Assembly: GCA_038154245.1 (NCBI GenBank) | Contig: JAYOZP010000008.1 | Coordinates: 1,831-65,830 of the forward strand | Source of the DNA: Nitrospinales bacterium | Lineage (GTDB): Bacteria > Nitrospinota > Nitrospinia > Nitrospinales > JAJDAT01 | Length of the DNA: 64,000 bases | Direction of reading: 5' to 3' | In this document: positions 8,606-52,420 of the stretch, piece by piece | Layout: every line of letters begins with the position of its first letter | Position numbering within the stretch: position 1 is the stretch's first letter | Notes under the pieces: model-generated | What the model was told of the DNA's origin: nothing | Database searches by the model: none | The model's input: the letters and a program-made list of their open reading frames with translations, nothing else | Translations under genes and position numbers: made by a program

Positions 8606-8726
8606 TAAAGGCAGAATTGCTGGGGAATCTCACAGCGCACAAAACGGATTGCTGCCGCTGCTTCCTTCCGGACCTGACGGGGTTCACAAAGGTCTCGCCG
8701 CGCGAGGCCCAACAAAACTGCCAAAT
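8606..8726 (-). ncRNA. ffs: Signal recognition particle RNA (small, 4.5S-type)
   Basis: The minus strand reads ...GUCAGGUCCGGAAGGAAGCAGC..., the conserved SRP domain IV motif. It is embedded in a long hairpin closed by GGCAG (8718-8722) and CUGCC (8610-8614). It lies immediately upstream of dnaX, a common synteny. Confidence 0.8.
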
Positions 8727-9159: not shown

Positions 9160-9212
9160 TTTTAAAGTTTCCTTAAAGAGCTTTTCAGCTTCTGAATAAC
9201 GTTTTTGGTTTT
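8961..9212. repeat. Perfect 126-bp tandem duplication (2 copies), one TPR unit each
   Basis: 8961-9086 and 9087-9212 are identical base for base. Diverged further copies flank them. Confidence 0.95.
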
Positions 9213-11449
9213 TGTAAATTATGTAATGAGGTAGCCACTTTAGGATGCTCTTCTTTCAACAACTTCTTCCTCATTTCTAAAGCTTTTTTATAAAGAGTTT
9301 CGGCTTCTGAATATCTTTTTAAGCCCTCATATGAGCTAGCCAAATTATTTAATGAGTCGGAAATATCGACATGCTCTTCGCCATAAATATTTTTCATCAT
9401 GGTAAAAGCTTCTTTTGCCAGTGGCTTTGCATTTTTATAACGACATTGTAAGTCGTATATTCTGGCTAAATCGTTAAGACTTCGAGCAACATCTTTATGT
9501 TGCTTGCCAAAGATATTCTTCCGCATTTGAAGAGAATCTTTTAAAAGCGATTCTGATTTTTCATAATTTCCTTCCCAACTTTCTAAAGCTCCAAAATAAT
9601 TCAAAGAACGAGCTAATTCCGGATGTTCTCCTAAATAACAATTTTTATTAATATCGTGGGCCTTTTCTAGAAATTTTCTGGATTCTTCATAAACACCTAT
9701 TTGCATCAAATAATATCCAGTCTGATTACAAATTTGACCCAGTTCAGGAATCTCCAAATCATTATCAGAGGTCAAGTCGGTTAAAGCTTTTACGGAAGGA
9801 AATAATTGTCTGCAAAGATACCAGTTTTCGAACTTTTCAGCGTCTGGAAATGCCCCATTCAAAGCTTTAATCGCTTTTTCCGCCCAAGATTTAGGATCTT
9901 GTAACCCATCTCGAAAAACTTGTTGTGCCAAACGATGAATGCGCAAAGATTCTCCCCTTTGATTTTCTTTTTGATCATTCGATAATGATTCTCCACTTTG
10001 GGTTCTTTTTATTAAAGAAAATTTGCTTGCCTTCGTTATTAACCCATTCCATTTAAATTCGTTTCCAGCAACCTCTTTCAACCTTTGACTTAAATGCTCT
10101 TTTCCTTCTTTAAAAATTATTTCTGGAATAGAATCGGCATCAAAAAAAGCGCATAATCGAATTAACTCCCCCGCTTCTGGACTCTCTTTTTCAGTTTTTT
10201 CCAGAGACATTGCAAAAACTTGGGCTACCGACTGCGGATAATCTTGCGTTTCGGGTTTTTCTTTTAAAAAATCTTTTCCAAAGGCTTCAAAAAGTTCTAA
10301 AAATTTTTCAAGATTTATCCCTGTTTCCTTTATATACGCCCCAGCTTGTTCAAGGGCCAGGGGCAACCCATCAAATTTTTTATTAATCTCTTTAGCATTG
10401 TTCAATGCTTCTTCTGGAGCTTTTTCAATTTCTTCCTTTTCACCAATCACTCCTGAACGTCTCAATAACAATAAAATACCTTCATCTTCCATTTCTTCAA
10501 CGTGAAGTTCATGGGCTTGCCCAGTTGCTCTACGACGCGTGGTTATTAAAACGCTTCCTAAAAAACCAGTAGGGACAAACTCGTTAAAAAACTTCATGTC
10601 GTCGACATTATCAAGAATGAGCAACCAAACTCTTTCTCTCTTCATCCAGTTTTTAAAGGAACTAAAAATAATTTCTTGCTCCTGAGATTTTTTTCCAGGT
10701 AGATCAATAGCCTCCGCAATTTCGGCAACGCTTTTCGCCAACGAAGCTTCATTTTCCGCGTTTATCCACAAAATTGAGTTGTAGGAATCCTTGTGGCGGT
10801 AGGCATACTCAACTGCTATTTGAGTTTTACCGATCCCCCCTAAACCCGAAATGGCTTGTTTTTGCGGTTGGGTCAACGCAGCCTTTTCACCCGGCTTCAA
10901 AAAATCTTCGATTTGTTTGATAAGGTTTTCCCGACCCGTGAAATATTCATTGCGATGATAGGGAACGGTGAAGGCTTTTGGTTTTTTGGGTAATTCGGAT
11001 GGAGCAGTGGGATTGAAACTGTTTAGATGATTTACTAACTTTTGAAATTCTTCAGGTCTATAAATATTGTAGATATTGCCCTGAGAAAGAATCGGCGGCA
11101 CATGCTCTCTATCTTCATCGCTAAGAGTGATGGGAATGAATTTTTCATTTTTTCCAAACTTGTCGTAAATTTCTTGTGAAATATATGTGGCTTCTCTAGT
11201 AACTCCTTTTCCTTCTTCGATTTCTCCTGAAAATATCTTTCCATACCTTTCGTTGCATACAGTAAGGACAAAATCAGCATCTTTGATTTGCTGCTCCATC
11301 CACTTCAGCCATCCTTGTACTGGAACAATTTCGTACTGATCAATCCAGCAGTTAAAGTTTTCTAACCGAAGGCGCTCGGAAAATTCATGAACATTTTTTT
11401 TATGCTCTTCCGAGTCATGGCTATAACTGATGAAGGCTTTTGTGGGCAT
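9185..11449 (-). CDS. STAND NTPase: N-terminal TIR-like domain, NB-ARC/AAA P-loop, C-terminal TPR array (candidate defence protein)
   Basis: AFISYSHDSEEHKK...FVLTVCNERY (bacterial TIR/SEFIR-like start). Walker A GLGGIGKTQIAVEYAY, Walker B WLLILDNVDD, and VLITTRRR. KLC-like TPRs (ARSLNDLARIY, LNNLASSY). Confidence 0.8.
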   Translation of the reverse strand: MPTKAFISYSHDSEEHKKNVHEFSERLRLENFNCWIDQYEIVPVQGWLKWMEQQIKDADFVLTVCNERYGKIFSGEIEEGKGVTREATYISQEIYDKFGKNEKFIPITLSDEDREHVPPILSQGNIYNIYRPEEFQKLVNHLNSFNPTAPSELPKKPKAFTVPYHRNEYFTGRENLIKQIEDFLKPGEKAALTQPQKQAISGLGGIGKTQIAVEYAYRHKDSYNSILWINAENEASLAKSVAEIAEAIDLPGKKSQEQEIIFSSFKNWMKRERVWLLILDNVDDMKFFNEFVPTGFLGSVLITTRRRATGQAHELHVEEMEDEGILLLLRRSGVIGEKEEIEKAPEEALNNAKEINKKFDGLPLALEQAGAYIKETGINLEKFLELFEAFGKDFLKEKPETQDYPQSVAQVFAMSLEKTEKESPEAGELIRLCAFFDADSIPEIIFKEGKEHLSQRLKEVAGNEFKWNGLITKASKFSLIKRTQSGESLSNDQKENQRGESLRIHRLAQQVFRDGLQDPKSWAEKAIKALNGAFPDAEKFENWYLCRQLFPSVKALTDLTSDNDLEIPELGQICNQTGYYLMQIGVYEESRKFLEKAHDINKNCYLGEHPELARSLNYFGALESWEGNYEKSESLLKDSLQMRKNIFGKQHKDVARSLNDLARIYDLQCRYKNAKPLAKEAFTMMKNIYGEEHVDISDSLNNLASSYEGLKRYSEAETLYKKALEMRKKLLKEEHPKVATSLHNLQKPKTLFRS

Positions 11450-11599
11450 CTCTTTTGGCGTTAAAAAAAATTATTCGATATAGGAGATTGGCTTAAGATA
11501 CTTAAACACTTAGAGGAAATCAATGGTTAATCGGCTTTGGTGGGTTGCAACAGAGCTAGAAAAGGTAGTCTAGGCTTCGAGAGCCTCAGCCTGACATTT

Positions 11600-15092: not shown

Positions 15093-15872
15093 ATGCCGAA
15101 AAAAATAGCCGTGGCAAATCAAAAGGGTGGAGTGGGGAAAACCACAACATCTGTCAACTTGGCGGCCGGAATGGCCTGGATTCATAAGAAAAAAGTCTTA
15201 CTGATTGATCTTGATCCACAAAGTAACGCCTCCTCTGGAGTGGGGATCACTGTCAAAGATGAAAACCCATCCGTTTACGACGTTTTATTGGGCGAGGAAT
15301 CTATTGAAAACGTTATAGAGCCTACCGAGATTGAAGGTTTATCCGTTTTGCCCGCAGCGCCCGATCTAGCAGGGGCTGAAATAGAGTTGGTGACTATAGA
15401 AAACCGCGAAAAAAGATTACTCCCAGCTTTAAACGGCGCCTGTGAAAATTACGACTTCGTTATTATAGATTGTCCTCCTTCTTTAGGACTTCTGACTCTC
15501 AACGCGTTAACGGTAGCAGATTCTGTTCTCATTCCAATGCAATGCGAATATTACGCTTTGCAAGGATTGCGTCATCTCCTAAAGACTTTAAAACTTGTAA
15601 AACAATCTCTTAATACCGCATTAACGGTTGAAGGGATTTTATTGACCATGTATGATGGTAGAACGTTATTGACGGCGCAAGTAAAAGATCAAATTTTAAA
15701 GTATTTTAAAGATTATTTACTAGATACTGTTATCCCTAGAAACATCCGTTTAAGCGAGGCTCCAAGCCACGGCAAGCCGGTCTTTTTATATGCGGACAAT
15801 TGCAAAGGGGCTGATTGCTACGCCGAGCTGGCAAAAGAAATAATCGAAAAAAATCAAATAGATATCGATTAA
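15093..15872 (+). CDS. parA: Chromosome partitioning ATPase ParA/Soj
   Basis: Deviant Walker A NQKGGVGKTT; DLDPQSNAS; IIDCPPSLG. Confidence 0.93.
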   Translation: MPKKIAVANQKGGVGKTTTSVNLAAGMAWIHKKKVLLIDLDPQSNASSGVGITVKDENPSVYDVLLGEESIENVIEPTEIEGLSVLPAAPDLAGAEIELVTIENREKRLLPALNGACENYDFVIIDCPPSLGLLTLNALTVADSVLIPMQCEYYALQGLRHLLKTLKLVKQSLNTALTVEGILLTMYDGRTLLTAQVKDQILKYFKDYLLDTVIPRNIRLSEAPSHGKPVFLYADNCKGADCYAELAKEIIEKNQIDID

Positions 15873-15951: not shown

Positions 15952-16830
15952 ATGGCAAAAAAAGGGTTGGGCGGAAAAGGATTGAGCGCATTAATCCCCG
16001 ACTTTGAGATGGGGGTTCCTGAAGTTAATTCTAACGAAAGTATGCGTGAGTTACTCCTGGATGAAATCGTTCCCAATAAAAATCAACCTAGAAAGTTATT
16101 TGACGACTCTAAGCTTCAAGAACTAATCAATTCCATCAAAGAAAAAGGCGTATTGCAGCCTATTGTGGTGCAAAAGAGCGAAGATGGATATGAAATCATC
16201 GTGGGCGAACGTCGATGGCGAGCTTCAAAAAAAGCTGGACTCAAAAAAATACCGGCAGTAATTAAGGAAACCACCGACACAGAATCTTTAGAATTAGCTA
16301 TTATCGAAAATATTCATCGACACGATTTAAATCCCATAGAAGAAGGGATGGCTTATTCGAGGTTGGCGGTAGACTTTGGAATGAAACAGGAGCAAATTGC
16401 TAAAAGGGTCGGTAAAAACCGAGCTTCAGTCGCCAACTACATGCGATTGTTAAAACTATCGCGTCCAGTGCAGGAAGATATAGTGACTGGAAAACTTTCC
16501 ATGGGTCATGCCCGGGCTTTATTAGGGCTTGAAAGAGAAAAAGAAATTGAAGCTTTGCGTCAAAAGATATTGAAAGACGGCTTAAGCGTTCGACAAACAG
16601 AAAGCCTCGTTAAACAAACTGAAAATAGAAATAGTTCGAAAACTTCAAAAGCGAGCCCTTCATCCAAATCAAAAAATGTTTTTTTGAAAACCATGGAAAA
16701 AAGTTTAGAGCAACAATTTGGAACAAAAGTTGAAATTCTTCCTGGTAAAAAGGGAGGAAAGGTCGTAATTTCTTATTATTCAAACGAAGATTTAGAGCGG
16801 CTTCAGGAATGTTTTTTTTCTAAGACCTAG
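15952..16830 (+). CDS. parB: Chromosome partitioning protein ParB/Spo0J
   Basis: NQPRK, GERRWRA and an HTH region (QEQIAKRVGKNRASVANYMRLL). Confidence 0.93.
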   Translation: MAKKGLGGKGLSALIPDFEMGVPEVNSNESMRELLLDEIVPNKNQPRKLFDDSKLQELINSIKEKGVLQPIVVQKSEDGYEIIVGERRWRASKKAGLKKIPAVIKETTDTESLELAIIENIHRHDLNPIEEGMAYSRLAVDFGMKQEQIAKRVGKNRASVANYMRLLKLSRPVQEDIVTGKLSMGHARALLGLEREKEIEALRQKILKDGLSVRQTESLVKQTENRNSSKTSKASPSSKSKNVFLKTMEKSLEQQFGTKVEILPGKKGGKVVISYYSNEDLERLQECFFSKT

Positions 16831-16896: not shown

Positions 16897-17292
16897 ATGA
16901 AAAAACAAGGAGGCGACTTAAAAGCCTATCTTGGGGAAGACGCTGCCTTTCAAGGCACTCTCAATTTCGAAGGAGTAGTTCGAATTGACGGCAAATTCGA
17001 AGGCAAGGTACTAACCAACGATACACTGATTGTCGGAGAAACTGGTCAATTAATTGCCGAAATAAATGCTGGAACGGTTATAAATAAAGGACGAATCGAA
17101 GGAACCATAGTCGCTTCAAAGAGAATTGAAATTCATTCAAAAAGTCATCTAACAGGTAATATTAAAACCCCGTCCTTTTTCGTAGAAGTTGGAGCAATTT
17201 TTGATGGAAATTGCGATATGACCGGAAAAGAAGAAAAAGGACTTCATTTGGTTCAAAATGAAGAAGATCAAGAATCTGAGACAGGAAGTTGA
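16897..17292 (+). CDS. Bactofilin
   Basis: Beta-helical bactofilin repeats (FEGVVRIDGKFEGKV, IEGTIVASKRIEIHSKSHLTGNIKTPSFFVEVGAIFDGNC) and an acidic tail. Confidence 0.9.
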   Translation: MKKQGGDLKAYLGEDAAFQGTLNFEGVVRIDGKFEGKVLTNDTLIVGETGQLIAEINAGTVINKGRIEGTIVASKRIEIHSKSHLTGNIKTPSFFVEVGAIFDGNCDMTGKEEKGLHLVQNEEDQESETGS

Positions 17293-17343: not shown

Positions 17344-18054
17344 ATGACGCCGTTTAAAATAAACAGCAGGGAAGGCGGAACTGTGGGAATGCTATCAATT
17401 GTTGGCACTCCCATTGGCAACCTAGGAGATTTCACATTTCGAGCCGCGGAAACCCTGGGAAGAGCCTATCTAATAGCGGCAGAAGACACACGCCGCACAC
17501 GAATTCTGCTTAACCATTACGACATCAAAACACCGCTCACAAGTTACAATAGTTATAACAAGGAGAAAAAAGGCCGAGAATTACTGGAGCTGATGAAAAA
17601 CGGTCATGAAATCGCCCTGGTCTCCGACGCTGGAATGCCGGGAATTTCCGATCCTTTATACCATCTAGTAAGGGGAGCCATTGAAGAAGACCTCTCAATT
17701 CAAACCATTCCCGGTCCCTCGGCTACATTAGCCGCTTTAGTTGTTTCCGGTCTGCCAATGGATCGATTTTCATTTGAGGGCTTTTTACCAAGAAAGAAAA
17801 GAAGAACTCAAACTCTTAAAAACTTAGCCGAAGACCCCAGAACAGTTATTTTATTTGAATCTCCAAAGCGCCTTAATAAAACGCTTAAAGATTTGTTAGA
17901 AGTTTTTGGCGACCGAGATATAGCCGTGGCTAGAGAGTTAACAAAAATGCATGAAGAAACTATCCGTGGAAAGTTATCAGAAATAGCAAGCCAAACCGAA
18001 AACAAAACATGGAAAGGGGAGGTCACTTTGGTTGTGGCCGGCCGACCTAAGTAA
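17344..18054 (+). CDS. rsmI: 16S rRNA (cytidine1402-2'-O)-methyltransferase
   Basis: LSIVGTPIGNLGD, SDAGMPGISDPG-like and ESPKRL motifs. The start may be the internal Met at 17389. Confidence 0.9.
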   Translation: MTPFKINSREGGTVGMLSIVGTPIGNLGDFTFRAAETLGRAYLIAAEDTRRTRILLNHYDIKTPLTSYNSYNKEKKGRELLELMKNGHEIALVSDAGMPGISDPLYHLVRGAIEEDLSIQTIPGPSATLAALVVSGLPMDRFSFEGFLPRKKRRTQTLKNLAEDPRTVILFESPKRLNKTLKDLLEVFGDRDIAVARELTKMHEETIRGKLSEIASQTENKTWKGEVTLVVAGRPK

Positions 18055-18197: not shown

Positions 18198-19568
18198 ATG
18201 GCGGTAATATCCGTAATCGGCCCCAAGGGGGGAATTGGAAAAACCACGCTATCAATCAACGCCGCTTCTGCGTTGACTAAAGCCTTAGGCTCTAGCTCGG
18301 AAAACAATCAAGTTTGTTTGGTAGATCTGGATTTACGATTGCCTACCATCTCCAGCCTTTTAGATAGCCACCCTCCAAAAACGTTTTTTGATCTTTTTGA
18401 AACGTTAGAAAATAAAACCTATCAAATCGACACGCTGAGAAATTTTTATCAAATCATCACCTGGTTTCAAGCATATCTGAATAAGGATATTAAAGAATCG
18501 GATAAAAACTTAGCGAAGTCTTTTTCCTTGTTTAAGAATATTAACACCGACTACTTTCGGTTTACGGATTTTGAGTTTGGCGACGTCCTTTACGAATTGA
18601 TATTGAATAGAGGCAAAATCACTTTGCCTAAAGATATCAAATCTCAAAAAAGTTTGATTATGGGATTAGACGCCCGCTCAATACGCAAAGTCTTAAAAGA
18701 ATGCGAAGGGAACTCCAGACCTTTGCCGGAAGATTATATAAATTACATTGAGGAATATGGTCTTTCCATTATTGGAGGAGAAGTTCCAATTTTGGGAAAA
18801 AGGCAACATCGTAAACGAATTAACGAGCCGGAGTTTCTTCTTTTATTTTTAGATTTTCTGCAAGATATTGTCGGACGTTTTGATAACGTCATACTGGATA
18901 CCCCCGCTGGCGGCGTAAACCATTTATCGTCTGTTATGAACTCCATAGACGAAGTGCTGTTCGTTTTTGATTTAAGTAATCAAATTGCCATTAACGGAAG
19001 CATCGATGCGCTACATTCTTTTATCGATTATTATGAAGATTTTCTGGACGATTTTATAAACGGTCGATTGAAAGGGCTGGATAAAGCTTTTGCCGACAAA
19101 TTAGTAGCGGAAAGAGGCGAAAAGGCCGTGATAGACTCGCTTCGCAATAAAAAATTTGGAATTGTTTTTAATCGTTTTCAAGGCGAAGAAGAAATCATAT
19201 CTTGTATAACTCAGATGAGAGAGTATCTCGATATCCTAGATAAGCTGGACGATTATAAAGACCGAATCCATATTATGGGCATGGTTCCTTTTTGCAAAAT
19301 TATTAATATCACAAACAATCGCGGCGTGATATTCTACGAAAAGGATCGAGATCTTTCTGGAAAAATGGATTTAATCTCCCGAAATATTCTTTCAAAAAAT
19401 AAATCTTGTCCTACGTTGTCCTGGAGAAATCAGGAAATTTTACGTTATTTGAACAAAAATGGCCGTTCCGGTATTTCTGGAAAAATTAACTGGCTTTCAA
19501 AAATTGTAGCGAACGATACATCAAATGGTAGAGAAAAAGCTAAAAAACCTCACTTTGAGCGAATATAA
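18198..19568 (+). CDS. ParA/MinD-family P-loop ATPase with a large insertion
   Basis: Deviant Walker A GPKGGIGKTT, then VDLDLRLPT, then Walker B VILDTPAG only about 230 aa in. The insert is about 170 aa relative to canonical ParA/MinD. Confidence 0.75.
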   Translation: MAVISVIGPKGGIGKTTLSINAASALTKALGSSSENNQVCLVDLDLRLPTISSLLDSHPPKTFFDLFETLENKTYQIDTLRNFYQIITWFQAYLNKDIKESDKNLAKSFSLFKNINTDYFRFTDFEFGDVLYELILNRGKITLPKDIKSQKSLIMGLDARSIRKVLKECEGNSRPLPEDYINYIEEYGLSIIGGEVPILGKRQHRKRINEPEFLLLFLDFLQDIVGRFDNVILDTPAGGVNHLSSVMNSIDEVLFVFDLSNQIAINGSIDALHSFIDYYEDFLDDFINGRLKGLDKAFADKLVAERGEKAVIDSLRNKKFGIVFNRFQGEEEIISCITQMREYLDILDKLDDYKDRIHIMGMVPFCKIINITNNRGVIFYEKDRDLSGKMDLISRNILSKNKSCPTLSWRNQEILRYLNKNGRSGISGKINWLSKIVANDTSNGREKAKKPHFERI

Positions 19569-20085
19569 TTTCCTAGAGGATAAAGACCCTCAGGGTATTT
19601 ACGACCGGGAAACGCGCGAAAAACTATACTGGATTATTGCGAAGCTTGAAAAAGATTCGGGCCGTAAGCCAAGTATCGAGAAAAAAATACTAAAAAAATT
19701 CAAAAAAGCCGATTTCGGTTTTTTAATGCCCAAAGATTCAGAATCGAACGGAACTTTGAATTTTGAGTCCGTGCTCCAAATCGAAGGCAAATTTCAAGGT
19801 GAAATTCGAGGACCACGCGTTTTGATTGTTGGAGCCGAAGCAACCATTGAAGCAAAAATTACAGCCGAAAATATTATTTGTCACGGTTCCATAATCGGAG
19901 ACGTTATCGGCCTCGAAAAAGTGGAAATTTTAAAAACTGGCCGTTTGATAGGCGACGTAAAATCGCCTTCTCTCTATATAGAACAAGGAGCGTTATTCAA
20001 AGGAAAGTGCCACATGCCAATTAATATTGAAAAATTGAATAACCCTCCTCAAAAAAGAAAAAGGCTATTCTTTTTAGCGGGTTAA
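19525..20085 (+). CDS. Bactofilin with a roughly 70-aa N-terminal extension domain
   Basis: C-terminal bactofilin core (FESVLQIEGKFQGEIRG...GDVKSPSLYIEQGALFKGKC). The N-terminal module is shared with the next ORF. It overlaps the upstream ORF by 44 nt. Confidence 0.8.
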   Translation: MVEKKLKNLTLSEYNFLEDKDPQGIYDRETREKLYWIIAKLEKDSGRKPSIEKKILKKFKKADFGFLMPKDSESNGTLNFESVLQIEGKFQGEIRGPRVLIVGAEATIEAKITAENIICHGSIIGDVIGLEKVEILKTGRLIGDVKSPSLYIEQGALFKGKCHMPINIEKLNNPPQKRKRLFFLAG

Positions 20086-20097
20086 TTAATATCGCTT

Positions 20098-21240
20098 ATG
20101 GAACGAAGCAAGCTCGAAGTATTAAACGTCACCGAGTACAATTTACTGGCCACAAAAGATCCCAGCGGCAGTTATGATCGCAAAACCCGGGAAAACCTAT
20201 ATTGGGTGATCGAAAAACTCCGGCAAAACGTTTCAAATCTCTCCCCTTTAGAAAATAAAATTTTCTATAAATTCAAGAACGCTCAATTCGAAGCGTTAGG
20301 CGAAAAAGAAAAAAAAGTAAAAATCGAAATCGCCAGATATCGTATTTCCAATAATTTAAAACAAACACTCAAAATAGCCGGCGCCGGATTAGGAGCAATC
20401 ATACTGGCTGCGGGCTTTATCTACCAATTCATTTTAGACGACGCAACTCAACAGAGGGTAGAAGTCGCTTATTATGAGGGACTCAATAGGGTCGGATTGG
20501 TTTCCAAGGAAGATTTTGAGCAAATTCGGGCTGATTTAGATTTAACCTTTTCCGAACTAGAAAAGGCGAAAAAAGAATCGGAAGAATTAAACGAAACCGT
20601 CGAAAGGATGATAGCGAATAATAAAGTTACCGAAAACCTCAAATACATTGTTAAGCAAATCTATAATAATCCAAGAGCAAAGTACATAAAAGACGACACC
20701 AAAGTCGCCTTAAACTTCAATGGAAAACCTATCGCCAAATATAAAAGAGATCCTAGCCTCTGGTACATTCTAGGAATTGTCGAAACAGGAGTTACTCGCT
20801 TGTATTACGACAATGAAGAGATTTTAGAGTTTCGCACAATTTTCGGGCGAAAAGGCGAAGAAACTCCTTTAGGCGAATACAAAATTAAAAATAGGGTGTA
20901 TAAACCAACATGGTACAAAAAAGAGATAAAAGAGGGTAAAACCCAAGTTCGAGCGATTCCATTTGGTCACCCGGAACATGAAATTGGTTTTTGGTGGTTA
21001 GGTTTAAAAAGAATGGGCGATCCTGTTCCAGGGAGTTATGGAATACATGGCGTTAACGTAACCAAAGTTAATGAGTTTTATAAAAAGAACTTCGATTGGC
21101 GAAATGGGAGCGCCGGTTGTCCCAACATCCAAGATTGGAATTTAAATTTTCTAGCGGAAGTTGTGCCCATTGGAACACCCGTGAATATAGTTTTTAAAGA
21201 TAAATGGGCCAACGGAAGCAATCCCGCCTCAGCCGCATAA
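20098..21240 (+). CDS. L,D-transpeptidase (YkuD) domain protein with shared N-terminal module, TM segment and coiled coil
   Basis: TM segment AGAGLGAIILAAGFIY. C-terminal YkuD-like region: PLGEYKIKNRVYKPTWY, YGIHGVN...GSAGCPN (catalytic His/Cys). Confidence 0.8.
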   Translation: MERSKLEVLNVTEYNLLATKDPSGSYDRKTRENLYWVIEKLRQNVSNLSPLENKIFYKFKNAQFEALGEKEKKVKIEIARYRISNNLKQTLKIAGAGLGAIILAAGFIYQFILDDATQQRVEVAYYEGLNRVGLVSKEDFEQIRADLDLTFSELEKAKKESEELNETVERMIANNKVTENLKYIVKQIYNNPRAKYIKDDTKVALNFNGKPIAKYKRDPSLWYILGIVETGVTRLYYDNEEILEFRTIFGRKGEETPLGEYKIKNRVYKPTWYKKEIKEGKTQVRAIPFGHPEHEIGFWWLGLKRMGDPVPGSYGIHGVNVTKVNEFYKKNFDWRNGSAGCPNIQDWNLNFLAEVVPIGTPVNIVFKDKWANGSNPASAA

Positions 21241-23252: not shown

Positions 23253-24515
23253 ATGGAACCCAAGTATTTTAAAGAAAAAGTCGCTATATTTTTGAACGAT
23301 CATCCAGAATTTTTTAATTTTTATCCCGATCTTTTGAAAAAAATCAAAACCATTGAAATGGAAGATCTTCCCTTGGCTCCGGCGCATTCGATGAGCATTG
23401 CCAATAAAATAATTCAAACTGTTCGCGACGACCGTGAGCACTACAAAGGCAAGCTTGAATGGTTCCTTGAAATTGCGAATAAAAACGAAATTATTCACAA
23501 CCACCTATACGAAATTGAAAAACTGGCTTTATCCAATTCCGATCTTCCCACGATGCTAACCCAGCTTAAAAAAGAGATCACTCAACGGTTTGATATCCAA
23601 TTTGTTGCGGTTTGGCTAGCGGACGATTTAAGAAATTCTTCAAATTTAGGCGTTGAAGATAGGTATCCCGAACCTATTGACGGTAGTTTCCGGTTTGTTG
23701 ATAGAGATATCCTCGAAGCATGGCTTGGCGACGATTTTGAACCTCAATTGCGAAGTGAAATTGATGGAGATTCTAGAGGATTTTATTCATCTCGAGATCG
23801 CGATAAAATTCAGTCTGAAGCATTAATCCCAATTATAATGCGCGACGAATTATCTGGTTTTTTGGCGCTGGGTAGTGAAAACCCATTCCATTTTTATGAA
23901 GAACTGGATTCCGGATTTTTAACAAAAATGGCCGGTAAACTTGCTGTAGCTCTCGAAAACATTTTTTTATGGGATCGGTTAAAAGAATTGTCCTATAAAA
24001 ACCCTATAACTGGCTTTTACGATAGAACCTATTTAGAAATAGCTCTTTCTAGAGAATTTGAACGCAGCAAACGTTATAGAAACTTTTTAACATGCGCCAT
24101 TATGTGCATTGACTATTTCGACAATCTCGATAATACTGGGGAAATCTCCAGGCAGGTTTTCGAGGAACTAACGCCGATTTTAGGCGAAGCATGCAGGTCC
24201 ATGGATATAGTTTTGCACTACGACGAACGGAAATTCTTTTTTATTTTCCCAGAAGCGTCGTTAGAAAGCGGAAATCAAATTGCCGAGCGAATTAGAAATC
24301 GTATTGAAAATGCGAAACTGGAGATACCTGGATTAGAGTCGGTAACTGCAAGTTTAGGAGTTTCCTCCTTTCCAAATGCAGCAGTTAAAAGCTGGAAAGA
24401 TCTAATTCAAAACGCCCTTAAAGGGTTAACCAAAGCTAATGAAAATGGCGGAAATCAAGCGGTTGCCTACTCTAGATTTTTTAAAGGCAAAATTGCTTCT
24501 GAAACTCACATTTAG
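23253..24515 (+). CDS. DUF484/GAF-like N-terminal domain fused to a degenerate GGDEF domain
   Basis: The N-terminus VAIFLNDHPEFFNFYPDLL is DUF484(YigA)-like. The C-terminus is GGDEF-like (NPITGFYDRTYLE) but has HYDERKF in place of GGDEF. RSMD lies five residues upstream at the I-site position. Confidence 0.75.
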   Translation: MEPKYFKEKVAIFLNDHPEFFNFYPDLLKKIKTIEMEDLPLAPAHSMSIANKIIQTVRDDREHYKGKLEWFLEIANKNEIIHNHLYEIEKLALSNSDLPTMLTQLKKEITQRFDIQFVAVWLADDLRNSSNLGVEDRYPEPIDGSFRFVDRDILEAWLGDDFEPQLRSEIDGDSRGFYSSRDRDKIQSEALIPIIMRDELSGFLALGSENPFHFYEELDSGFLTKMAGKLAVALENIFLWDRLKELSYKNPITGFYDRTYLEIALSREFERSKRYRNFLTCAIMCIDYFDNLDNTGEISRQVFEELTPILGEACRSMDIVLHYDERKFFFIFPEASLESGNQIAERIRNRIENAKLEIPGLESVTASLGVSSFPNAAVKSWKDLIQNALKGLTKANENGGNQAVAYSRFFKGKIASETHI

Positions 24516-25310: not shown

Positions 25311-26024
25311 ATGATTAATGGTTTATCCAACGCATTATCGGGACTAAGAACAGCCGCAAAAAAGCTATCTAATAGCGCTAACAATGTGGCTAATGTCCGA
25401 ACCCCTGGATTTAAAGCGTCGAACGCCGATGCTGTTTCCATAGAATCCGGCGGCTCAAAAGTCTCTTCTATTTCGCGTTCAAATACTCAAGGATCGGTGA
25501 TCCCCACCTCAAATCCGTTAGATTTAGCAATTTCGGGAAATGGACTTTTTCAATTTGTTAACTCTGGAGGCGGAACCTCTTTCACTAGAGGTGGAAGCTT
25601 CAAAACAGACGGTAACGGACGATTAACCACAAGTAACGGAGAACCGTTAACTCCAGAAATTCAAATTCCGGGAAATTCGACTAACATTTCAATTTCCCAA
25701 ACTGGAGAAGTTTCAGCCCAAATTGACGGCCAAAACCAAAACCTGGGTCGGATCCAACTCGCTTCTTTTTCCAATCCAGCTGGTTTGACAGCCGAAGGCA
25801 ATAGTTCATTTGGCGAATCTGCCAGCTCCGGAGCTCCAATTACTGGCAATCCAGGAACGGGGGAATTTGGAAACGTGTTATCTGGATTTTTAGAAGAATC
25901 CAATGTCGATATCGCTAGCGAAGTCGTTGGACAAATTGCCGATGTCGCCGCATTCAAGGCTAACGCGGCAGTCATAAAAGCCATCGACGAAACAACAGGC
26001 TCCATCCTGGACATAAAAGCTTAG
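25311..26024 (+). CDS. Flagellar basal-body rod/hook family protein (FlgG/FlgF-like), isolated
   Basis: N-terminus LSGLRTAAKKLSNSANNVANVRTPGFKA; NPLDLAISGNGLFQF; FTRGGSFKTDGNGRL; C-terminus LEESNVDIASEVVGQI..FKANAAVIKA. Confidence 0.8.
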   Translation: MINGLSNALSGLRTAAKKLSNSANNVANVRTPGFKASNADAVSIESGGSKVSSISRSNTQGSVIPTSNPLDLAISGNGLFQFVNSGGGTSFTRGGSFKTDGNGRLTTSNGEPLTPEIQIPGNSTNISISQTGEVSAQIDGQNQNLGRIQLASFSNPAGLTAEGNSSFGESASSGAPITGNPGTGEFGNVLSGFLEESNVDIASEVVGQIADVAAFKANAAVIKAIDETTGSILDIKA

Positions 26025-34926: not shown

Positions 34927-35013
34927 TGGTGCCGAAGAGAGGATTTGAACCTCCACGTCCTTGCGGACACATGAACCTGAATCATGCGCGTCTACCAATT
35001 CCGCCACTTCGGC
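34927..35013 (-). tRNA. tRNA-Leu (anticodon CAG), encoded CCA
   Basis: The minus strand GCCGAAG...CTTCGGCACCA forms a cloverleaf. The anticodon arm is CATGA-TTCAGGT-TCATG. It has a long variable arm and the T-loop GGTTCAAATCC. Confidence 0.9.
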
Positions 35014-35082: not shown

Positions 35083-36714
35083 TTAACAACCAGGCTTACC
35101 AGCGCCTCCGTTATCCAAAAAATCGGCTAATACAGAAACTTGTTTCGCTTGTTCTTCGTCTTCGATAATTTTTTCAATCTCTTCGTCGCTTTTATCAGCA
35201 AAAATTTCAAAAATGCGATCCACAACAGCGCCGCTACGAACGTCGGCAAATCTAGGATTTAACCGTCTTAACGCAGAAAACGGTATTTCACCTTCTAACA
35301 CTTCTTCAATAAACTCGGCTAAAGGGGATTCATTCGCTTCGGCAGCCGATACAGTTGTTGAGCGAATAGTGCGGTTATAACTTCCTCCATTTGTGATGAT
35401 ATTATCCGGATTATTTCCCGCTGGAGAAATTGCATTTCCAGTTATGTTTACATTTCCTCCTTCCGTTCTGATAAAACTATTTGAACTTAAATTGAAACCG
35501 CCGCCATCAGTTTGATCTGAATCGGCAACAGCGGTGAATGAACTATTAAATCCAGAAACATGGGCTTCAAAGCTCGACCCGGAAACAAAGTTGATATTTT
35601 CTTTGGCCGTTAGCGAAATGTTTTCATGGAATACTATATTAGCTCCAATTCCAAAAATATCGTCGCCAGAAATAAACTCAGTCTCCTTATGCCCTAAATC
35701 AACATCGCCGAAATTTATATTTCCTGAAGAATTATTTCCAACTGTTAATTTTTTGGCTCTTAATGAAATTATTTCATTTTGAGTAAGAACGATATTACAT
35801 CCAGTGGTCGCTATACAAATTGATCTATTCGATGAAAACGGCTTAATCGTAATCGTCCCAGAACTCGGACCGTTTATAAAAGAAAATGTATCCGTCGAAA
35901 TTGAAATGGGTACACCAAAGGTATCGCCTCCAGAACTTGTAAACCCGCTGAGCAAATCAATTTCGTTGGCAGTAACCGAAGCATTTCCTCCAGCGGTTGC
36001 GACAAAGATATTTGGATCTTGCTGATACTTCCCTGAAGCGGCGCTAGCGGAGTAGTTTCCCCCTCCAGTCAAAACATTACCTGTTAAATGCATAGAAGAA
36101 CCACTGAGATTCGTCGAAGTAGCGGACAAACTAACCGCTCCTCCTTTAGATTGAATCGGTCCCACAAAAACACCGCTAAAACCATTAATGCCAATAGTCC
36201 CTCCGCCTGAATTAATATCTTTCAATGCGGAAACGCTTCCACCTGTTGATGTTAAATCAATATTTCCGCCATTGGAATTGAGTTTTCCAAGAGTCAGACT
36301 CCCTCCCGCTTTGAAAGTAATAGCTCCACCATTCGTTCTAACAAGATCATTAGTATCGTTAAAAGTAATTGCGCCGCTTGTTGTTTGAAATCTTACAGAA
36401 TTATTTGAGGTTGTTTGTAAATTCAACTCATTATCGCTTAAATTTTGAATTGTGATCGTGTTATTCGCTTCCAAAACAATGTTATTTGTTGCATTTAAAG
36501 CTTCTAATGCGGATTCGGAAATATTAAAAGTTCCAGATCCATCTGCAAAAAGAACCACGTGATCGCCTGAAATTTGACCGTCGTCAGACGCCGAAGATCC
36601 ATCTTTTATTATGATATCGTCGGGATCTAAAAGTAAGGTACCGGTTTGTCCGTTAGCGGCTGTCGTAATAACCTCCCCATTAAAATCTAAAAATCGTTTT
36701 CCCGATACTTCCAC
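35083..36714 (-). CDS. TpsA-like exoprotein paralog 1, C-terminal part (same frame as 36910-37950, separated by one TAA)
   Basis: It begins within GGFVEVSGKRFLDFNGEVITTAANG..LLLDP, colinear with residues about 410 onward of the 951-aa paralog. The segment 36715-36909 is open in the same frame. Confidence 0.75.
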   Translation of the reverse strand: MEVSGKRFLDFNGEVITTAANGQTGTLLLDPDDIIIKDGSSASDDGQISGDHVVLFADGSGTFNISESALEALNATNNIVLEANNTITIQNLSDNELNLQTTSNNSVRFQTTSGAITFNDTNDLVRTNGGAITFKAGGSLTLGKLNSNGGNIDLTSTGGSVSALKDINSGGGTIGINGFSGVFVGPIQSKGGAVSLSATSTNLSGSSMHLTGNVLTGGGNYSASAASGKYQQDPNIFVATAGGNASVTANEIDLLSGFTSSGGDTFGVPISISTDTFSFINGPSSGTITIKPFSSNRSICIATTGCNIVLTQNEIISLRAKKLTVGNNSSGNINFGDVDLGHKETEFISGDDIFGIGANIVFHENISLTAKENINFVSGSSFEAHVSGFNSSFTAVADSDQTDGGGFNLSSNSFIRTEGGNVNITGNAISPAGNNPDNIITNGGSYNRTIRSTTVSAAEANESPLAEFIEEVLEGEIPFSALRRLNPRFADVRSGAVVDRIFEIFADKSDEEIEKIIEDEEQAKQVSVLADFLDNGGAGKPGC

Positions 36715-36909
36715 AAAACCGCCGTCGCCAGAATTTGCTCCACCTTTGGCTTCGATAGCTCCATAAAATCGAGTGGTGTCGTCGGCCCAGTAGATAACCC
36801 GGCCGCCATTGCCGCTGGTGATCGCATTGGCTTTAACAACTGTTTCGGAACCGCCAAAAGTTACCCTTGCGTTTTGTACCGATCCTTTGCCTTGGTAATC
36901 GCCGCCAAT

Positions 36910-37977: not shown

Positions 37978-40833
37978 TTAACATCCCGGATTAGGAGTAA
38001 CTTTATCCAAAAAATCATCCAAAACAGATACTTGTTGCGCCTGTTCATTATCTTCAACAATTTTTATAAACTCTTCCGGTGGTAAATCAGGGAAAAGGCC
38101 AAAAATAAGTATAGTTTCATCATCGATTGGAATATCGGGAAATAAAAATGGGTCCAAAATATTAGGAAACGGATCTTCCGGAAATGGAAACGGAAACGGA
38201 TCTTCCGGAAATGGAAACGGAAACGGATCTTCCGGAAATGGAAACGGAAACGGATCCTCTTCTAGAAAAAAAAATGGATCAAATGAATCTACACTGGCGA
38301 AAACTGTTGGTAGTTCTAATGTGGTTAGAACACCACCATTCGTATTAATTTGGCCAAAAACATCTACAAAATTACCGGTTAAATTGACATTACCACCTCT
38401 TGTGGTGATTGAACTGCTATTATCAATTGTAAAAACGCCGCCATTAAGTCCATCTGAGTCCGCTGTCACCGTAACAGACGCGCCAAAGCCCGAGACATGA
38501 GCCTCAATACTTGAACCTTTAGAATTGGAATCTATAAAAAAACTAACATCTTCTGCCGCGTCAAAGCTGATATCGTTATAAAAAAGGATATTAGCTCCAA
38601 GAGCCGTTATACTTTCACCAGAAATAAAATTAACCTTTTTTGGTCCTAAAATAACATCGCCTAAATTTATATCTCCGGTAAAAATATCTCCAATATTTAA
38701 TTTGGTGGTTCTTAAAGAAATTATCTCACTTTGGCTCAAATTGATAAAACAACCTGTTTTTCCAACACAAATTGAATCTCCTGGTATCGATGAAGCAATA
38801 GTGATACTATCGGTAGGTTCAGCGCCAGTATTAAACGAAGTTGAATAGGTATTAATGGACGAAGGAACTCCAAAAATATCATTTTTACCTGTAGAACCGC
38901 TAAGAAATTCAAAATCGGAAGCTAATAAGCTAACCGAACCGCCATTAGTTTTTACAAACATTGGGAAATCTTGAGTGTAGGTTCCCAAACCAGCATCGGC
39001 AGAAAAATTTCCACCTCCTGTCAAAATATTTCCCTTTACATTGATTCCAGAAAAAGCAAATAGATTGACATCGCCGCCTTTAGAATCAATACCCTTGGTA
39101 TCAATAGAAAACCCCGAGGTTAAATTTATATCGCCGCCATTCGATTTAAGCGTACCTAATGTCAAAGAATCGCCAGCTGAAAAAGTTATCGATCCTCCTT
39201 GTGTCTGAAGAACATCATTGGTGTCTTGAAAGGTGATTGACCCAAAACTAGCTTGTAAAGTTACGGAATGTCCAGATACTTGCTGAAGGTCCAACAAATT
39301 ATCGTTTAAATCTTGAATGGTAATACTATCCTCAGCTTGCAAAACGATATTGGTAGTCGAACTCAAACTTTCTAAGGTTAATTCTCCAATCTCGAAAGGT
39401 ACTAAACCTCCATCAGCTTCTAAAATCTCTCCAAGAGGGCTTCCTGTTGATATTTCTGGGTCGTCATCGGCAGTACCATTTACAATATCAATAAACTCCG
39501 GATCTAAGAGCAAAGTCCCGATTTCGCCATTCGCGGCTGTGGTTATAACTTCGCCATTAAAATCAAGGAATCGTTTGCCCGATACTTCCACGAAACCACC
39601 ATCGCCTGAATTAGCGCCGCCTTTAGCTTCAATCGCGCCATAAAACCGAGTGGTGTCGTCGGACCAGTAAATCACTTTGCCGCCATTGCCATTATTTATC
39701 GCGTTGGCTTTTACAACAGTGTCTGGACCGCCATAAGTAACCAGAGCGTTTTGAACCGTTCCTTTTCCCTGATAATCCCCGCCAATTAAAACCTCGCCCC
39801 CGCCCTGGTGGCCAGAAACATCGATAATAGCTTTGCCTAATTGCCCTACTTTATGACCTAAAATACGAACGCTACCGCCCGTCTCTCCTGAACCAGTTCC
39901 CGATGCGTCTAAAGTTCCTTCGTTTGTTGCGGTACCATTTGGTCCCGCTTCTAAATAAATCGCGCCGTTCCTTTTAGAAACCGATTGCGCTCGAATAATG
40001 CCAGTGTTGTTAACCACCGAGCGAACCATCTTTTGCGCCGTATGTGCGGTCAATAAAACTTTGCCGCCATCCGCTTGAATAGTTCCCGAATTAAAAGCAC
40101 CGTTCTCAATCGTGTTGCCGTCTTTATCTACAAACGAACCGTCAACGGGTTGCGTGATTGCAAAGTTAATCAAACCATCGCCAGAGAAATCCATCGTCGC
40201 CGCTTTACCAGAGGCTAAAGCAATCGATCCTAAATTGGCCATCAACATGCCACGATTTTCGGCGCGCGGTCCTAGCAAGCCGATGTAACCCGAAGCGTTT
40301 ATTTTTCCTTCGTTAATTACAGAAGCTAAAGGTTTCGAAGGGTCTTGAGTAAAGCGATAATTGCGGTTCAAGAAATCTTGATCGGAAATCTGCAACGACG
40401 TCGCCATTAAACTACCAACATTGATAATTGAATTTGGACCAAAAAACACTCCTGACGGATTGGTCACAAATATTTTTCCATTGGCGTTGAGCTTCCCTAA
40501 AATCGCCGTTGGATCCTGACCTATCACTCGATTCAATGCGACTGCATCGGCGCTTGGCTGATTAAATTGCACCGTTTCAGTTTGACCAATATTAAAACCT
40601 TGCCAGTTAGTAATCATCTGATTCGAAGATTGATTGATCACCATGTTTTGGTTGTTCGGTTGTTGGATATTTCCATTTCCCGCGACTATCTGACCACCTT
40701 GCGGCAGGGCAAATACCAAAGCAGGAAAATAGCTCATTAAAAAAACTAGAAGTCCAACCCAAAAAGGAACCAAATAATAAGGCCACGGCCTGAAAAATTT
40801 AGAATCTTTCTTACTATTCACAGTCAAAAACAT
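37978..40833 (-). CDS. TpsA-like large exoprotein paralog 2 (951 aa), intact
   Basis: Signal peptide and TPS domain as above, then the GGFVEVSG...LLLDP module, a beta-helix-like G/N/T/S repeat region, (PFPFPEDPF)n, and a C-terminal ...NPGC. Confidence 0.85.
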   Translation of the reverse strand: MFLTVNSKKDSKFFRPWPYYLVPFWVGLLVFLMSYFPALVFALPQGGQIVAGNGNIQQPNNQNMVINQSSNQMITNWQGFNIGQTETVQFNQPSADAVALNRVIGQDPTAILGKLNANGKIFVTNPSGVFFGPNSIINVGSLMATSLQISDQDFLNRNYRFTQDPSKPLASVINEGKINASGYIGLLGPRAENRGMLMANLGSIALASGKAATMDFSGDGLINFAITQPVDGSFVDKDGNTIENGAFNSGTIQADGGKVLLTAHTAQKMVRSVVNNTGIIRAQSVSKRNGAIYLEAGPNGTATNEGTLDASGTGSGETGGSVRILGHKVGQLGKAIIDVSGHQGGGEVLIGGDYQGKGTVQNALVTYGGPDTVVKANAINNGNGGKVIYWSDDTTRFYGAIEAKGGANSGDGGFVEVSGKRFLDFNGEVITTAANGEIGTLLLDPEFIDIVNGTADDDPEISTGSPLGEILEADGGLVPFEIGELTLESLSSTTNIVLQAEDSITIQDLNDNLLDLQQVSGHSVTLQASFGSITFQDTNDVLQTQGGSITFSAGDSLTLGTLKSNGGDINLTSGFSIDTKGIDSKGGDVNLFAFSGINVKGNILTGGGNFSADAGLGTYTQDFPMFVKTNGGSVSLLASDFEFLSGSTGKNDIFGVPSSINTYSTSFNTGAEPTDSITIASSIPGDSICVGKTGCFINLSQSEIISLRTTKLNIGDIFTGDINLGDVILGPKKVNFISGESITALGANILFYNDISFDAAEDVSFFIDSNSKGSSIEAHVSGFGASVTVTADSDGLNGGVFTIDNSSSITTRGGNVNLTGNFVDVFGQINTNGGVLTTLELPTVFASVDSFDPFFFLEEDPFPFPFPEDPFPFPFPEDPFPFPFPEDPFPNILDPFLFPDIPIDDETILIFGLFPDLPPEEFIKIVEDNEQAQQVSVLDDFLDKVTPNPGC
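38165..38258. repeat. 27-bp tandem repeat, about 3.4 copies, coding (PFPFPEDPF)n in paralog 2
   Basis: ggaaacggatcttccggaaatggaaac is repeated perfectly three times (38165-38245), followed by a partial copy. Confidence 0.95.
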
Positions 40834-40843
40834 AAAAATTAGT

Positions 40844-41881
40844 TTAAGGAGCGCACGTTGCCGCTACCGCAGCAAAAGGCACATTGACTGGCTTGGCAAA
40901 AGCCGCCCCGATATCCGGACCCGCTACGCTTACGAAGTCGGCTACAACGGAATCGCCTCCTCCCGCATTGGAATCCTGAGAACTTGAAGAATCTCCACCG
41001 CTAGGACTACTAGAACTTGAGTCAGAACTGGAACTGCCGCTCGATTGCGAAGTTGATTGCTGACCTGTGCCGCCTGAGCCTTGGTTAAACATAGAAGAAG
41101 GTAGGCTGGTTCCAATCCGGCCTAAAACGACAGTACTTATCGAATTAAAATTATTATTCGACATCGTCTGGGGAACTGTTGGCGCTTGTCCTTGCGGAAT
41201 TGTGCTGACGCTATTAGCTCCCACCAACTGATTACCCGCAATATTAGGATCGACATTGGAAGCGCTCATAGCTCCGGTCTTGTTGGCAACAATTGTTTTT
41301 GTGGCAGAGGAGCTAATAAAACCAAAGGTACCTCTAGACGATAAGTTTGCCGTTGGCGTTATAACCTTAAAACTCGAATCTTTATTTTTTTGGCTTTTAT
41401 TAATGATGTACATGGAAAGCCCTTTGGCTACATTGATCACTCCTTTTCGGAATTTTTGGGACTTATCCAATTGATAGGAACCTATAGACATGCGAGAGTT
41501 TGGTCCCAAAGCCAAAAGACTGTTGTCGTTAAATTTTATTTTTAATCGACTGCCTCTTTTTGTGCGGAAATTATCCGATGCGTAAACTTCTTGTTTGAAT
41601 TTAGCTTTTTGCCAAACCGCATCTGGATCAAAAGAAACTGGTTTAATACTTAATTTACCTGGAGCGGCCTTGGCTACAGGTTCAGAACCTCCCCCTGCTT
41701 TCATTTCCACGGTGCCAATGATTCCAATTATGGTTCCAATGGGTTTTTCTTCGGCAGCCCAGACAATCGACCCGAAATGTGAAACCGTAGATCCAAAATG
41801 GGAAACAAAGAGCGCAAAAATTACCGACCAAAACACTTTTAGACTAAAAATAGGACGCGAAAAGTTTGTGAAGTCCGTCAT
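40844..41881 (-). CDS. Secreted FecR-domain protein with Ser/Gly-rich tail (FecR-1)
   Basis: Signal peptide; GTVEMK...W..AKFKQEVYASDNFRTKRGSRLKIKFNDNSLLALGPNSRMSI and FKVITPTANLSSRGTFGF (FecR pattern); low-complexity C-terminus ending ATCAP. Confidence 0.8.
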   Translation of the reverse strand: MTDFTNFSRPIFSLKVFWSVIFALFVSHFGSTVSHFGSIVWAAEEKPIGTIIGIIGTVEMKAGGGSEPVAKAAPGKLSIKPVSFDPDAVWQKAKFKQEVYASDNFRTKRGSRLKIKFNDNSLLALGPNSRMSIGSYQLDKSQKFRKGVINVAKGLSMYIINKSQKNKDSSFKVITPTANLSSRGTFGFISSSATKTIVANKTGAMSASNVDPNIAGNQLVGANSVSTIPQGQAPTVPQTMSNNNFNSISTVVLGRIGTSLPSSMFNQGSGGTGQQSTSQSSGSSSSDSSSSSPSGGDSSSSQDSNAGGGDSVVADFVSVAGPDIGAAFAKPVNVPFAAVAATCAP

Positions 41882-52326: not shown

Positions 52327-52420
52327 ACTTTTTAACCAAAAAAGCCGTACAATCTAGAGACTACATTAAGGTCTTTTTTCTCAAATTGAGACGGGTTATC
52401 AATTACCGAGGAAACTCTTT

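Follow-up and report, generated by a model that had tools for sequence, protein, structure and literature searches.

A shared N-terminal module on a bactofilin and an adjacent YkuD-family L,D-transpeptidase in Nitrospinota

We analyzed a 64-kb stretch of DNA from a Nitrospinales bacterium (contig JAYOZP010000008.1; hereafter the window, to whose positions all coordinates refer). Two adjacent genes in it, for the bactofilin bac2 (186 aa, Pfam Bactofilin; 19525-20085) and for a YkuD-family L,D-transpeptidase (LDT; 380 aa, Pfam YkuD; 20098-21240), encode proteins that begin with the same module of about 68 residues. Both genes, like those that precede them in their cluster from parA onward, lie on the plus strand. 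A preliminary description of this DNA, made from the sequence alone, had noted a colinear module at the two N termini, and our comparison bears this out. Full-length BLASTP places residues 1–71 of bac2 on residues 1–71 of LDT without a gap, with 34 of the 71 residues identical (48%) and an E value of 7e-18. The earlier figure of about 45% identity was thus close, if slightly low. It had also held that the remaining domains are unrelated, and this is the case: the comparison of the full proteins gave no further alignment beyond residue 71, and Pfam assigns the rest of bac2 to Bactofilin and the rest of LDT to YkuD.

A module common to two N termini

The copies, counted as residues 1–68 of each protein, occupy 19525..19728 in bac2 (delimited by BLASTP and the AlphaFold2 (AF2) model) and 20098..20301 in LDT (BLASTP and a hidden Markov model (HMM) of the module; predicted cytoplasmic). 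The span reported earlier, 19546-20292, opens with the bac2 copy and closes with that of LDT, and so takes in the entire bactofilin core. A third copy was not found in the 64-kb window by tblastn with either module, the next match having an E value above 1.

The module recurs well beyond this genome. When genomes were scanned with an alignment of five module sequences, 36 loci from 36 species-level genomes were recovered, in the closest of which the module is 97% identical to that of the window. The labels of 34 loci read Nitrospinota, Nitrospina, Nitrospinaceae or Nitrospinales. The other two, labeled Nitrospirae and "uncultured bacterium", have the same gene order, and the Nitrospirae-labeled one groups with the Nitrospinaceae loci L026-L030. 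The module HMM detects both copies in 31 of the 36 loci, at the N termini of proteins of about 183–192 and 374–386 aa. Run on the six-frame open reading frames (ORFs) of the loci, the HMM found only the N termini of a 174–193-aa bactofilin and of a 374–386-aa YkuD protein (a few module-bearing ORFs were called longer, from start codons further upstream), and the genes for the two are adjacent and co-oriented. The similarity between the two proteins is, on this evidence, no local accident.

The survey of other carriers that the preliminary description had proposed took the form of an exhaustive profile search, at E values up to 1e-3, against 1.84 billion representative proteins, and it returned two architectures only. 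Of 39 matches, 36 show one or the other of them, whole or as fragments at contig ends. The others are short partial matches, one in a tandem-repeat protein (P0038) and two in proteins of 1,600–2,000 aa (P0039 and P0040); a third module architecture was not among the 39, P0039 and P0040 having been seen as short partial matches only. A word-indexed protein search with the module returned 4 fragments only, and so badly under-reported the family in comparison with the profile search and the genome scan. The search with LDT minus its module gave 629 relatives, of which the best 120 are all about 380 aa; the named ones among these 120 belong to Nitrospina, Candidatus Nitromaritima and Candidatus Nitrohelix. 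Their annotation goes no further than "L,D-transpeptidase" or "ErfK/SrfK", and that of the bac2 relatives no further than "CcmA (bactofilin family)".

That the module belongs to no named family, as had been suggested, held in each resource that we searched. No consistent Pfam family emerged among 46 modules scanned at E values up to 10, the modules of bac2 and LDT had no match in Pfam or NCBIfam, and the best E value in a profile search of PDB sequences was 0.11. For the predicted fold, Foldseek found no match in the PDB with an E value below 1 (best E 1.8, TM-score at most 0.45). Our literature search, on bactofilins in connection with Nitrospina, YkuD/LD-transpeptidase or ParA-like proteins, found no description of the module. 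Judged by these searches, the module appears to be specific to Nitrospinota and previously undescribed. The initial observation is confirmed and extends to the whole phylum.

The 69 module copies align in 70 columns, essentially without gaps. Residues L9, G24, Y26, T30, R31, L34, I38, L41, E52, F59, F64 and L67 are invariant or nearly so in both classes, whereas the polar positions N15, K20, D21, S25, R28, E32, N33, S49 and K58 are fixed in the LDT modules and variable in the bac2 modules. Every copy has a net positive charge (+1 to +11; isoelectric point (pI) 7.8–10.1, mean about 9.2–9.4), and a conserved Lys5 lies near the flexible N terminus. Mean pairwise identity is 67% among the LDT copies, 46–47% among the bac2 copies and 39% between the classes. 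Within one genome the two modules are 29–50% identical, which equals the level across genomes (mean 39%). Because a bac2 module resembles the LDT copies of other genomes as closely as the one beside it, the duplication predates the sampled radiation; it is ancient, with both copies maintained. Gene conversion between the two copies was tested for and rejected on the same equality of within-genome and cross-genome identities. Mean identities among orthologues indicate that each module changes about as fast as the protein that carries it: they are 45% for the bac2 core, 72% for the juxtamembrane segment of LDT, 58% for its spacer and 80% for its YkuD domain (the LDT values being from 32–37 orthologues), and 65% for the ATPase encoded upstream.

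Host proteins, ATPase and gene order

The module was modeled by AF2 both alone and within bac2. The model of residues 1–72, from a 31-sequence alignment, has a mean predicted local distance difference test score (pLDDT) of 82 and a predicted template-modeling score (pTM) of 0.63, with helices at about 11–19, 28–43 and 50–60 and small bridges at 25–26 and 65–66. The full-length model, from a 21-sequence alignment, has a pLDDT of 86.5 and a pTM of 0.75; it contains the same three helices and a four-residue strand at 65–68, followed by a β-helix at 73–159 (core pLDDT 94–97). The pLDDT of the module in this model is 88–93, except for the loop at 41–50 (78) and the first ten residues (71). The last five to seven or so shared residues are not separate from the bactofilin fold, as they coincide with the first β-strand of bac2. 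A second bactofilin of the cluster, bac1, is 38% identical to bac2 by BLASTP. This homology sets in at bac2 residue 62, so that F64-G-x-L67, with which the shared stretch ends, is the first strand of the bactofilin fold. Within it, F64 and L67 are conserved in both module classes. The pTM of the full-length model suggests a helical part anchored to the head of the bac2 β-helix, where it might alter polymerization.

In bac2, Pfam PF04519 covers residues 69–162 (19729..20010) with an E value of 5e-24 and 84.8 bits against a cut-off of 27.9. By Foldseek the modeled core superimposes on the Thermus thermophilus bactofilin (6rib) with a TM-score of 0.92 and a root-mean-square deviation of 1.1 Å over 101 columns, and on Caulobacter crescentus BacA (2n3d) with a TM-score of 0.88. 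Thus, bac2 qualifies as a bactofilin by sequence and by its predicted right-handed β-helix fold. Its N terminus reads MVEKKLKNL and continues into the folded domain, without the membrane-targeting peptide of consensus MFSKKKK that is common but not universal at the N termini of bactofilins (PMC12448750). The C-terminal tail (20011..20085, stop codon included) is predicted to be disordered, with pLDDT below 50 at residues 170–186. Its end (20056-20082) is basic and then hydrophobic and nearly always terminates in G (KRKRLFFLAG in the window, ..QLFRAG and ..KKTG elsewhere), the terminal G being present in at least 90% of 32 orthologues. This tail could be a membrane- or partner-binding peptide.

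In LDT the module is followed by a conserved basic juxtamembrane segment with the motif KKVKxEVARYRLS (aa 69–89; 20302..20364), a single transmembrane segment (about aa 90–113; 20365..20436), a charged spacer (aa 114–232; 20437..20793) and the YkuD catalytic domain (aa 233–364; 20794..21189), which matches Pfam PF03734 with an E value of 4e-17 and 63.5 bits against a cut-off of 23.4. The spacer contains no Pfam domain above threshold and is probably helical, judged from its composition only. The transmembrane segment is the sole 19-residue Kyte-Doolittle window above 1.6, and each of 36 orthologues has exactly one. In all 36 its 15-residue flanks hold 4–6 Lys and Arg residues on the N-terminal side and 1–3 on the C-terminal side, and the positive-inside rule applied to these flanks places the N terminus of LDT in the cytoplasm and the spacer and YkuD domain in the periplasm. 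A periplasmic YkuD domain is what its substrate would require. The module is accordingly predicted to be cytoplasmic in both proteins, as had been proposed, since bac2 has no hydrophobic segment and LDT a single N-in one.

The catalytic His (in IHG) and Cys (in SAGC) of LDT are invariant in the 36 orthologues. The usual active-site motif of YkuD enzymes is SxGC(I/V)R, with an Arg after the catalytic Cys. In LDT this site reads GSAGCPN(I/V) (about residues 335–343; 21100-21125), likewise invariant in the 36, and departs from the canonical GC(I/V)R; this may indicate a non-standard substrate or activity. A solved structure close to LDT in sequence was not found in the PDB. The name L,D-transpeptidase is used here for the YkuD family; the enzyme may cross-link peptidoglycan (3-3 cross-links), trim it (LD-carboxypeptidase) or attach proteins.

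Upstream of bac2 lies the gene for an orphan MinD/ParA-like ATPase of 456 aa (18198..19568), recognized by P-loop matches to AAA_31, CbiA and ParA in Pfam and to KGGVGR and MinD in NCBIfam. Its relatives of solved structure by sequence are FleN/FlhG and MinD only, over the P-loop region (E 2e-5). The named-family matches cover only the first 70 or so residues, and none of the named NCBIfam subfamilies (MinD, ParA, FlhG, MipZ) was reached, minD scoring 32 against a cut-off of 212.9. The deviant Walker A motif GPKGGIGKTT and the Walker B motif VILDTPAGG are invariant in 34 orthologues and agree with the consensus forms KGGxGK[ST] and hhhDxP; a further motif is DLDLRLPT. Between the Walker A region and the remainder of the ParA/MinD fold lies an insertion of about 170 aa (residues about 60–230; 18375-18890), with an invariant motif of its own, GGEVPILGK..HRKRINEP, and no Pfam family match. 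At the C terminus, most of the 34 orthologues carry the amphipathic stretch W.SRF.RIASSLG, represented in the window by GKINWLSKIV (about 19470-19510), which in sequence resembles a MinD-type membrane-targeting helix.

The gene order parA-parB-bac1-rsmI-ATPase-bac2-LDT-argH is kept in every sufficiently long locus of the 36, with bac2 missing in five. The adjacency of the ParA-like ATPase gene, singled out in the preliminary description, proved general: it is directly upstream in every locus that reaches far enough, the five without bac2 included. In the window, parA (15093-15872) and parB (15952-16830), both assigned by Pfam and by synteny in the 36 loci, precede bac1 (131 aa, no module; 16897..17292; PF04519, E 1e-26) and rsmI (17344-18054, from the ORF list). 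The bac1 gene is present in every locus with enough upstream sequence (mean identity 64%), and bac1 is a possible alternative docking partner of the module. Independent gene calls on Logan assemblies gave the same ORFs for the ATPase (456 aa), bac2 (186 aa) and LDT (380 aa). The ATPase ORF overlaps the start of bac2 by 44 nt (19525-19568), and 12 nt separate the end of bac2 from the start of LDT. In the clade of the window (loci L001-L004) the ATPase has 456 aa, compared to 438 aa in most orthologues, and the overlap is due to this 18-aa C-terminal extension; in other loci 0–10 nt lie between the genes. Operon structure is read here from spacing and conserved order only; in a consensus scan of 14.5–23.5 kb, promoter and terminator counts equaled the shuffled expectation. 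As a separate observation, bac2 and LDT share one reading frame, with the bac2 stop codon and four codons (LISL) between them (20083-20100), and read-through of this stop codon would yield a bactofilin-LDT fusion.

In the five loci without bac2 (L005, L007, L011, L018 and L036) the ATPase and LDT genes lie 14–96 bp apart in four; in L007 the gap measures 480 bp and is non-coding. Within the sequence of these loci, a tblastn search for a displaced or decayed bac2 detected bac1 and the LDT module only. All five keep the ATPase gene and the LDT module, and in the module alignment their LDT modules are as conserved as those of the other loci. By their placement in that alignment these modules fall among three or more distinct sets of relatives; for this reason bac2 was probably lost in more than one lineage.

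Other parts of the window are listed for completeness. Downstream of argH in many of the loci is a gene for a DUF484-GAF-GGDEF protein (23253-24515, plus strand), and further downstream one for a FlgE/F/G-type flagellar rod protein (25311-26024, plus strand). A 761-aa ORF (9188-11470, minus strand) with SEFIR/TIR, NB-ARC and TPR domains has the STAND-type architecture that is typical of proteins in defense or signaling. The RNA genes are those for a bacterial small signal recognition particle RNA (8615-8714, minus strand; 63.5 bits) and one tRNA (34930-35013, minus strand). A giant ORF (52390-64000, plus strand), without a stop over more than 3,870 codons, begins with a two-partner secretion (TPS) domain (E 1e-34) and runs off the end of the window; G+C content climbs from about 0.40 to about 0.50 across it. 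A second TPS-domain ORF is on the other strand, the listed minus-strand spans being 37981-40863 and 35086-36909.

Possible functions of the module

From the homology, its phyletic restriction, the two architectures, the gene order and the predicted fold and topology, we infer a role in docking. In the reading that we favor, with a probability of roughly 0.45, the module would be a docking head that couples LDT to a bactofilin/ATPase assembly. As a scaffold-docking domain, it would give LDT the same head as bac2. LDT would then be recruited to the cytoplasmic bactofilin assembly, either by homotypic contact with the bac2 module or by docking on a bactofilin head (that of bac2 or bac1), or by both. 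Periplasmic remodeling of peptidoglycan of the L,D-transpeptidase type would in this way be confined to sites marked from the cytoplasm, and the upstream MinD/ParA-like ATPase would position or regulate the bactofilin-LDT assembly. The reasoning is that LDT should engage whatever the bac2 head engages, because client and scaffold carry homologous heads that include the first bactofilin strand. The membrane-anchored client could also supply the membrane attachment of bac2, as bac2 has no MFSKKKK peptide. Like the known bactofilin clients, LDT is by its predicted topology a bitopic enzyme with a cytoplasmic N terminus and a periplasmic catalytic domain, here YkuD, and bac2 and LDT are adjacent in 31 of the 36 loci. 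The order ATPase-bac2-LDT, with its short or overlapping junctions, supports the coupling.

Several points weigh against this docking reading. Contact with the bac2 module cannot be the only function of the module, because five of the 36 species have no bac2 at the locus and keep the module on LDT; for these species the model must fall back on bac1, on self-association or on the ATPase. A symmetric homotypic interface predicts that both classes keep the same surface residues, and the polar residues that are invariant in the LDT modules vary in those of bac2. The invariant residues that both share (L9, L34, I38, L41, F59, F64 and L67) are mostly core-like, and a common binding surface is not evident among them. 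Finally, the packing of the module on the β-helix is taken from the pTM and the strand pattern, in a model whose bac2 alignment holds 21 sequences only. The most specific form of the proposal, a three-part peptidoglycan-patterning system in which the ATPase positions the bactofilin, the head domain was duplicated onto LDT, and scaffold and enzyme co-assemble homotypically, we consider unlikely as a whole.

The preliminary description had instead taken the module for an adaptor by which both proteins dock to the ATPase. Here bac2 and LDT would separately bind the ATPase, which would position both, and the module would mediate no direct bactofilin-LDT contact. The gene neighborhood fits this well, as in every locus the ATPase gene immediately precedes those that carry the module, and it is directly joined to the LDT gene (14–96 bp) in four of the five species without bac2, in all of which the LDT module survives the loss of bac2. 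In conservation the LDT module matches the ATPase (67% and 65%), which fits a highly conserved partner. With intact Walker A and B motifs and a MinD-like amphipathic C terminus, the ATPase could work at the membrane, where the modules are. The module is basic (pI about 9.2–9.4), with the conserved Lys5 near its flexible N terminus; basic peptides at the N terminus are frequent among partners of ParA/MinD proteins, and FlhG recognizes a motif that FliM and FliY have in common at their N termini. However, most bac2 modules do not preserve the polar surface residues that never vary in LDT, and this argues against one binding surface for one partner. Direct binding of a client to a bactofilin is documented twice, in contrast to the ATPase, and we know of no precedent for a ParA-like ATPase that binds the tail of a peptidoglycan enzyme. 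In a mirror-tree analysis of the modules, the ATPase, bac1 and housekeeping genes in 20 genomes, the residual correlations held nothing specific to the ATPase (0.26 with the LDT module and −0.39 with the bac2 module). The residuals are noisy and unspecific, since the periplasmic domain of LDT correlates at 0.70 with the ATPase and at 0.64 with parA, and they were not used as evidence. Given the BacA-LmdC and BacA-PbpC precedents, direct docking on bactofilin is no less likely than an ATPase that serves both proteins as partner; the latter, the main rival reading, seems to us possible but somewhat doubtful.

The other explanations are less probable still. The module may be a self-association domain in each protein separately, dimerizing LDT and replacing or modifying the head-to-head contact of bac2. 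Bactofilin filaments are non-polar and use the head for one of two contacts, as the structure of the T. thermophilus bactofilin, also the best Foldseek match of bac2, has shown; this head is precisely where the module lies. Retention of the LDT module without bac2 and the evolution of each module at the rate of its host protein would also suit such a role. It would leave unexplained why, among 1.84 billion representatives, these two adjacent co-oriented genes only carry the module, and why the pair has been linked since before the sampled Nitrospinota radiated, so we regard it as improbable. A membrane- or lipid-binding domain, which would replace the bactofilin targeting peptide and merely stabilize topology in LDT, would agree with the positive net charge of every copy and with the N terminus of bac2, which is not of the MFSKKKK type. 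A bitopic membrane protein has no need of such a domain, the invariant residues are mostly hydrophobic core with G24, Y26, T30, R31 and E52 and form no amphipathic surface, and AF2 predicts a compact helical fold, not an amphipathic helix; the possibility is accordingly slight. A helix-turn-helix (HTH)-like nucleic-acid binder, linking the two proteins to the nearby ParABS chromosome segregation system, would be consistent with a basic three-helix domain and with genes downstream of parAB. Foldseek found no HTH or other fold with an E value below 1, the Pfam scan of the 46 modules gave no consistent DNA-binding family, and helix 2, of 16 residues with a six-residue loop to helix 3, is unlike an HTH. 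As the PDB profile search also yielded nothing consistent, this DNA-binding reading was rejected and has a negligible likelihood.

Were the docking reading correct, its interest would lie in how bactofilins select and position their client enzymes, which is poorly understood. The peptides of PbpC and LmdC, the two characterized cases, are short and unrelated to each other; recruitment through a folded domain common to scaffold and client would follow a different principle, with the 68 residues of the module as the interacting unit, and a client that mimics the scaffold's own end would be one undescribed for pairs of bacterial cytoskeleton and cell wall enzyme. An orphan MinD/ParA-like ATPase would also be tied to cell-wall remodeling. 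The reading would give a putative function to an unannotated region that seems universal in the sampled Nitrospinota, in a family confined to one phylum. Nitrospinota are the main marine nitrite oxidizers, with shapes from straight rods to helices, and their cell biology is almost unstudied.

Comparison with known systems

We know of no shared domain, fusion or adjacency of CcmA and Csd6 in Helicobacter pylori. The H. pylori CcmA-Csd system and the YkuD-fold LD-carboxypeptidases Csd6, Pgp2 and Bd1075 (PMC9507126, PMC8938487) are nonetheless like the present pair in their components, a bactofilin and YkuD-fold enzymes that trim peptidoglycan, and both of these act in the control of cell shape. 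Lineage-specific N-terminal extensions that alter the localization or assembly of bactofilins are described for a chlamydial bactofilin (Lee et al. 2023) and for the transmembrane form of Proteus mirabilis CcmA (as summarized in PMC12448750). Unlike the bac2 module, they are not reported in these summary accounts as common to a client enzyme. We compare them by description only, and extended bactofilins of the chlamydial or Proteus type were not among the matches of the module profile in the 1.84 billion representatives. In Myxococcus xanthus, BacNOP, PadC and ParA form a system in which, in the summary available (Lin et al. 2017, in PMC12448750), the ParB-like adaptor PadC makes the link by attaching to the extended C-terminal tail of BacP, with the machinery of chromosome segregation as cargo. 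Bactofilins are linked to a ParA-type ATPase and to parAB in both cases, functionally there and by gene order here. As far as that summary describes the system, it differs in that the Nitrospinota cluster has no PadC-like gene and holds as extras an orphan ATPase and a cell-wall enzyme.

The closer parallels are two membrane-anchored cell-wall enzymes. PbpC of C. crescentus binds polymerized BacA through its first 13 residues, which are cytoplasmic, and when overproduced it can anchor a bactofilin that lacks the membrane-targeting peptide (PMC12448750). Like LDT, it carries an N-terminal cytoplasmic sequence, which effects the recruitment to bactofilin that we propose for the module. In contrast to LDT, PbpC is a class A penicillin-binding protein, its 13-residue peptide binds the bactofilin core near the C-terminal polymerization interface, and it has neither a folded domain there nor homology between client and scaffold. 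LmdC, an M23 peptidase, comprises a cytoplasmic tail that binds BacA, a transmembrane segment, a coiled coil and the M23 domain, and lmdC is adjacent to bactofilin genes in many species (PMC10945521). As in the BacA-LmdC systems of Hyphomonas neptunium and Rhodospirillum rubrum (PMC10945521), the bactofilin gene in Nitrospinota adjoins that of a bitopic peptidoglycan enzyme, and LDT repeats the arrangement of N-terminal cytoplasmic region, one transmembrane segment, periplasmic spacer and C-terminal catalytic domain. LDT differs from LmdC, with its M23 domain and its 38-aa tail containing a β-hairpin, in having a YkuD domain and a predicted folded helical head of about 68 aa. The Nitrospinota pair, known here from sequence alone, differs further in that the head of LDT is homologous to the bactofilin's own N terminus and that a MinD/ParA-like ATPase gene is always in the cluster. 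What is new with respect to known bactofilins and their client enzymes is a phylum-restricted domain shared by both, together with the associated orphan MinD/ParA-like ATPase.

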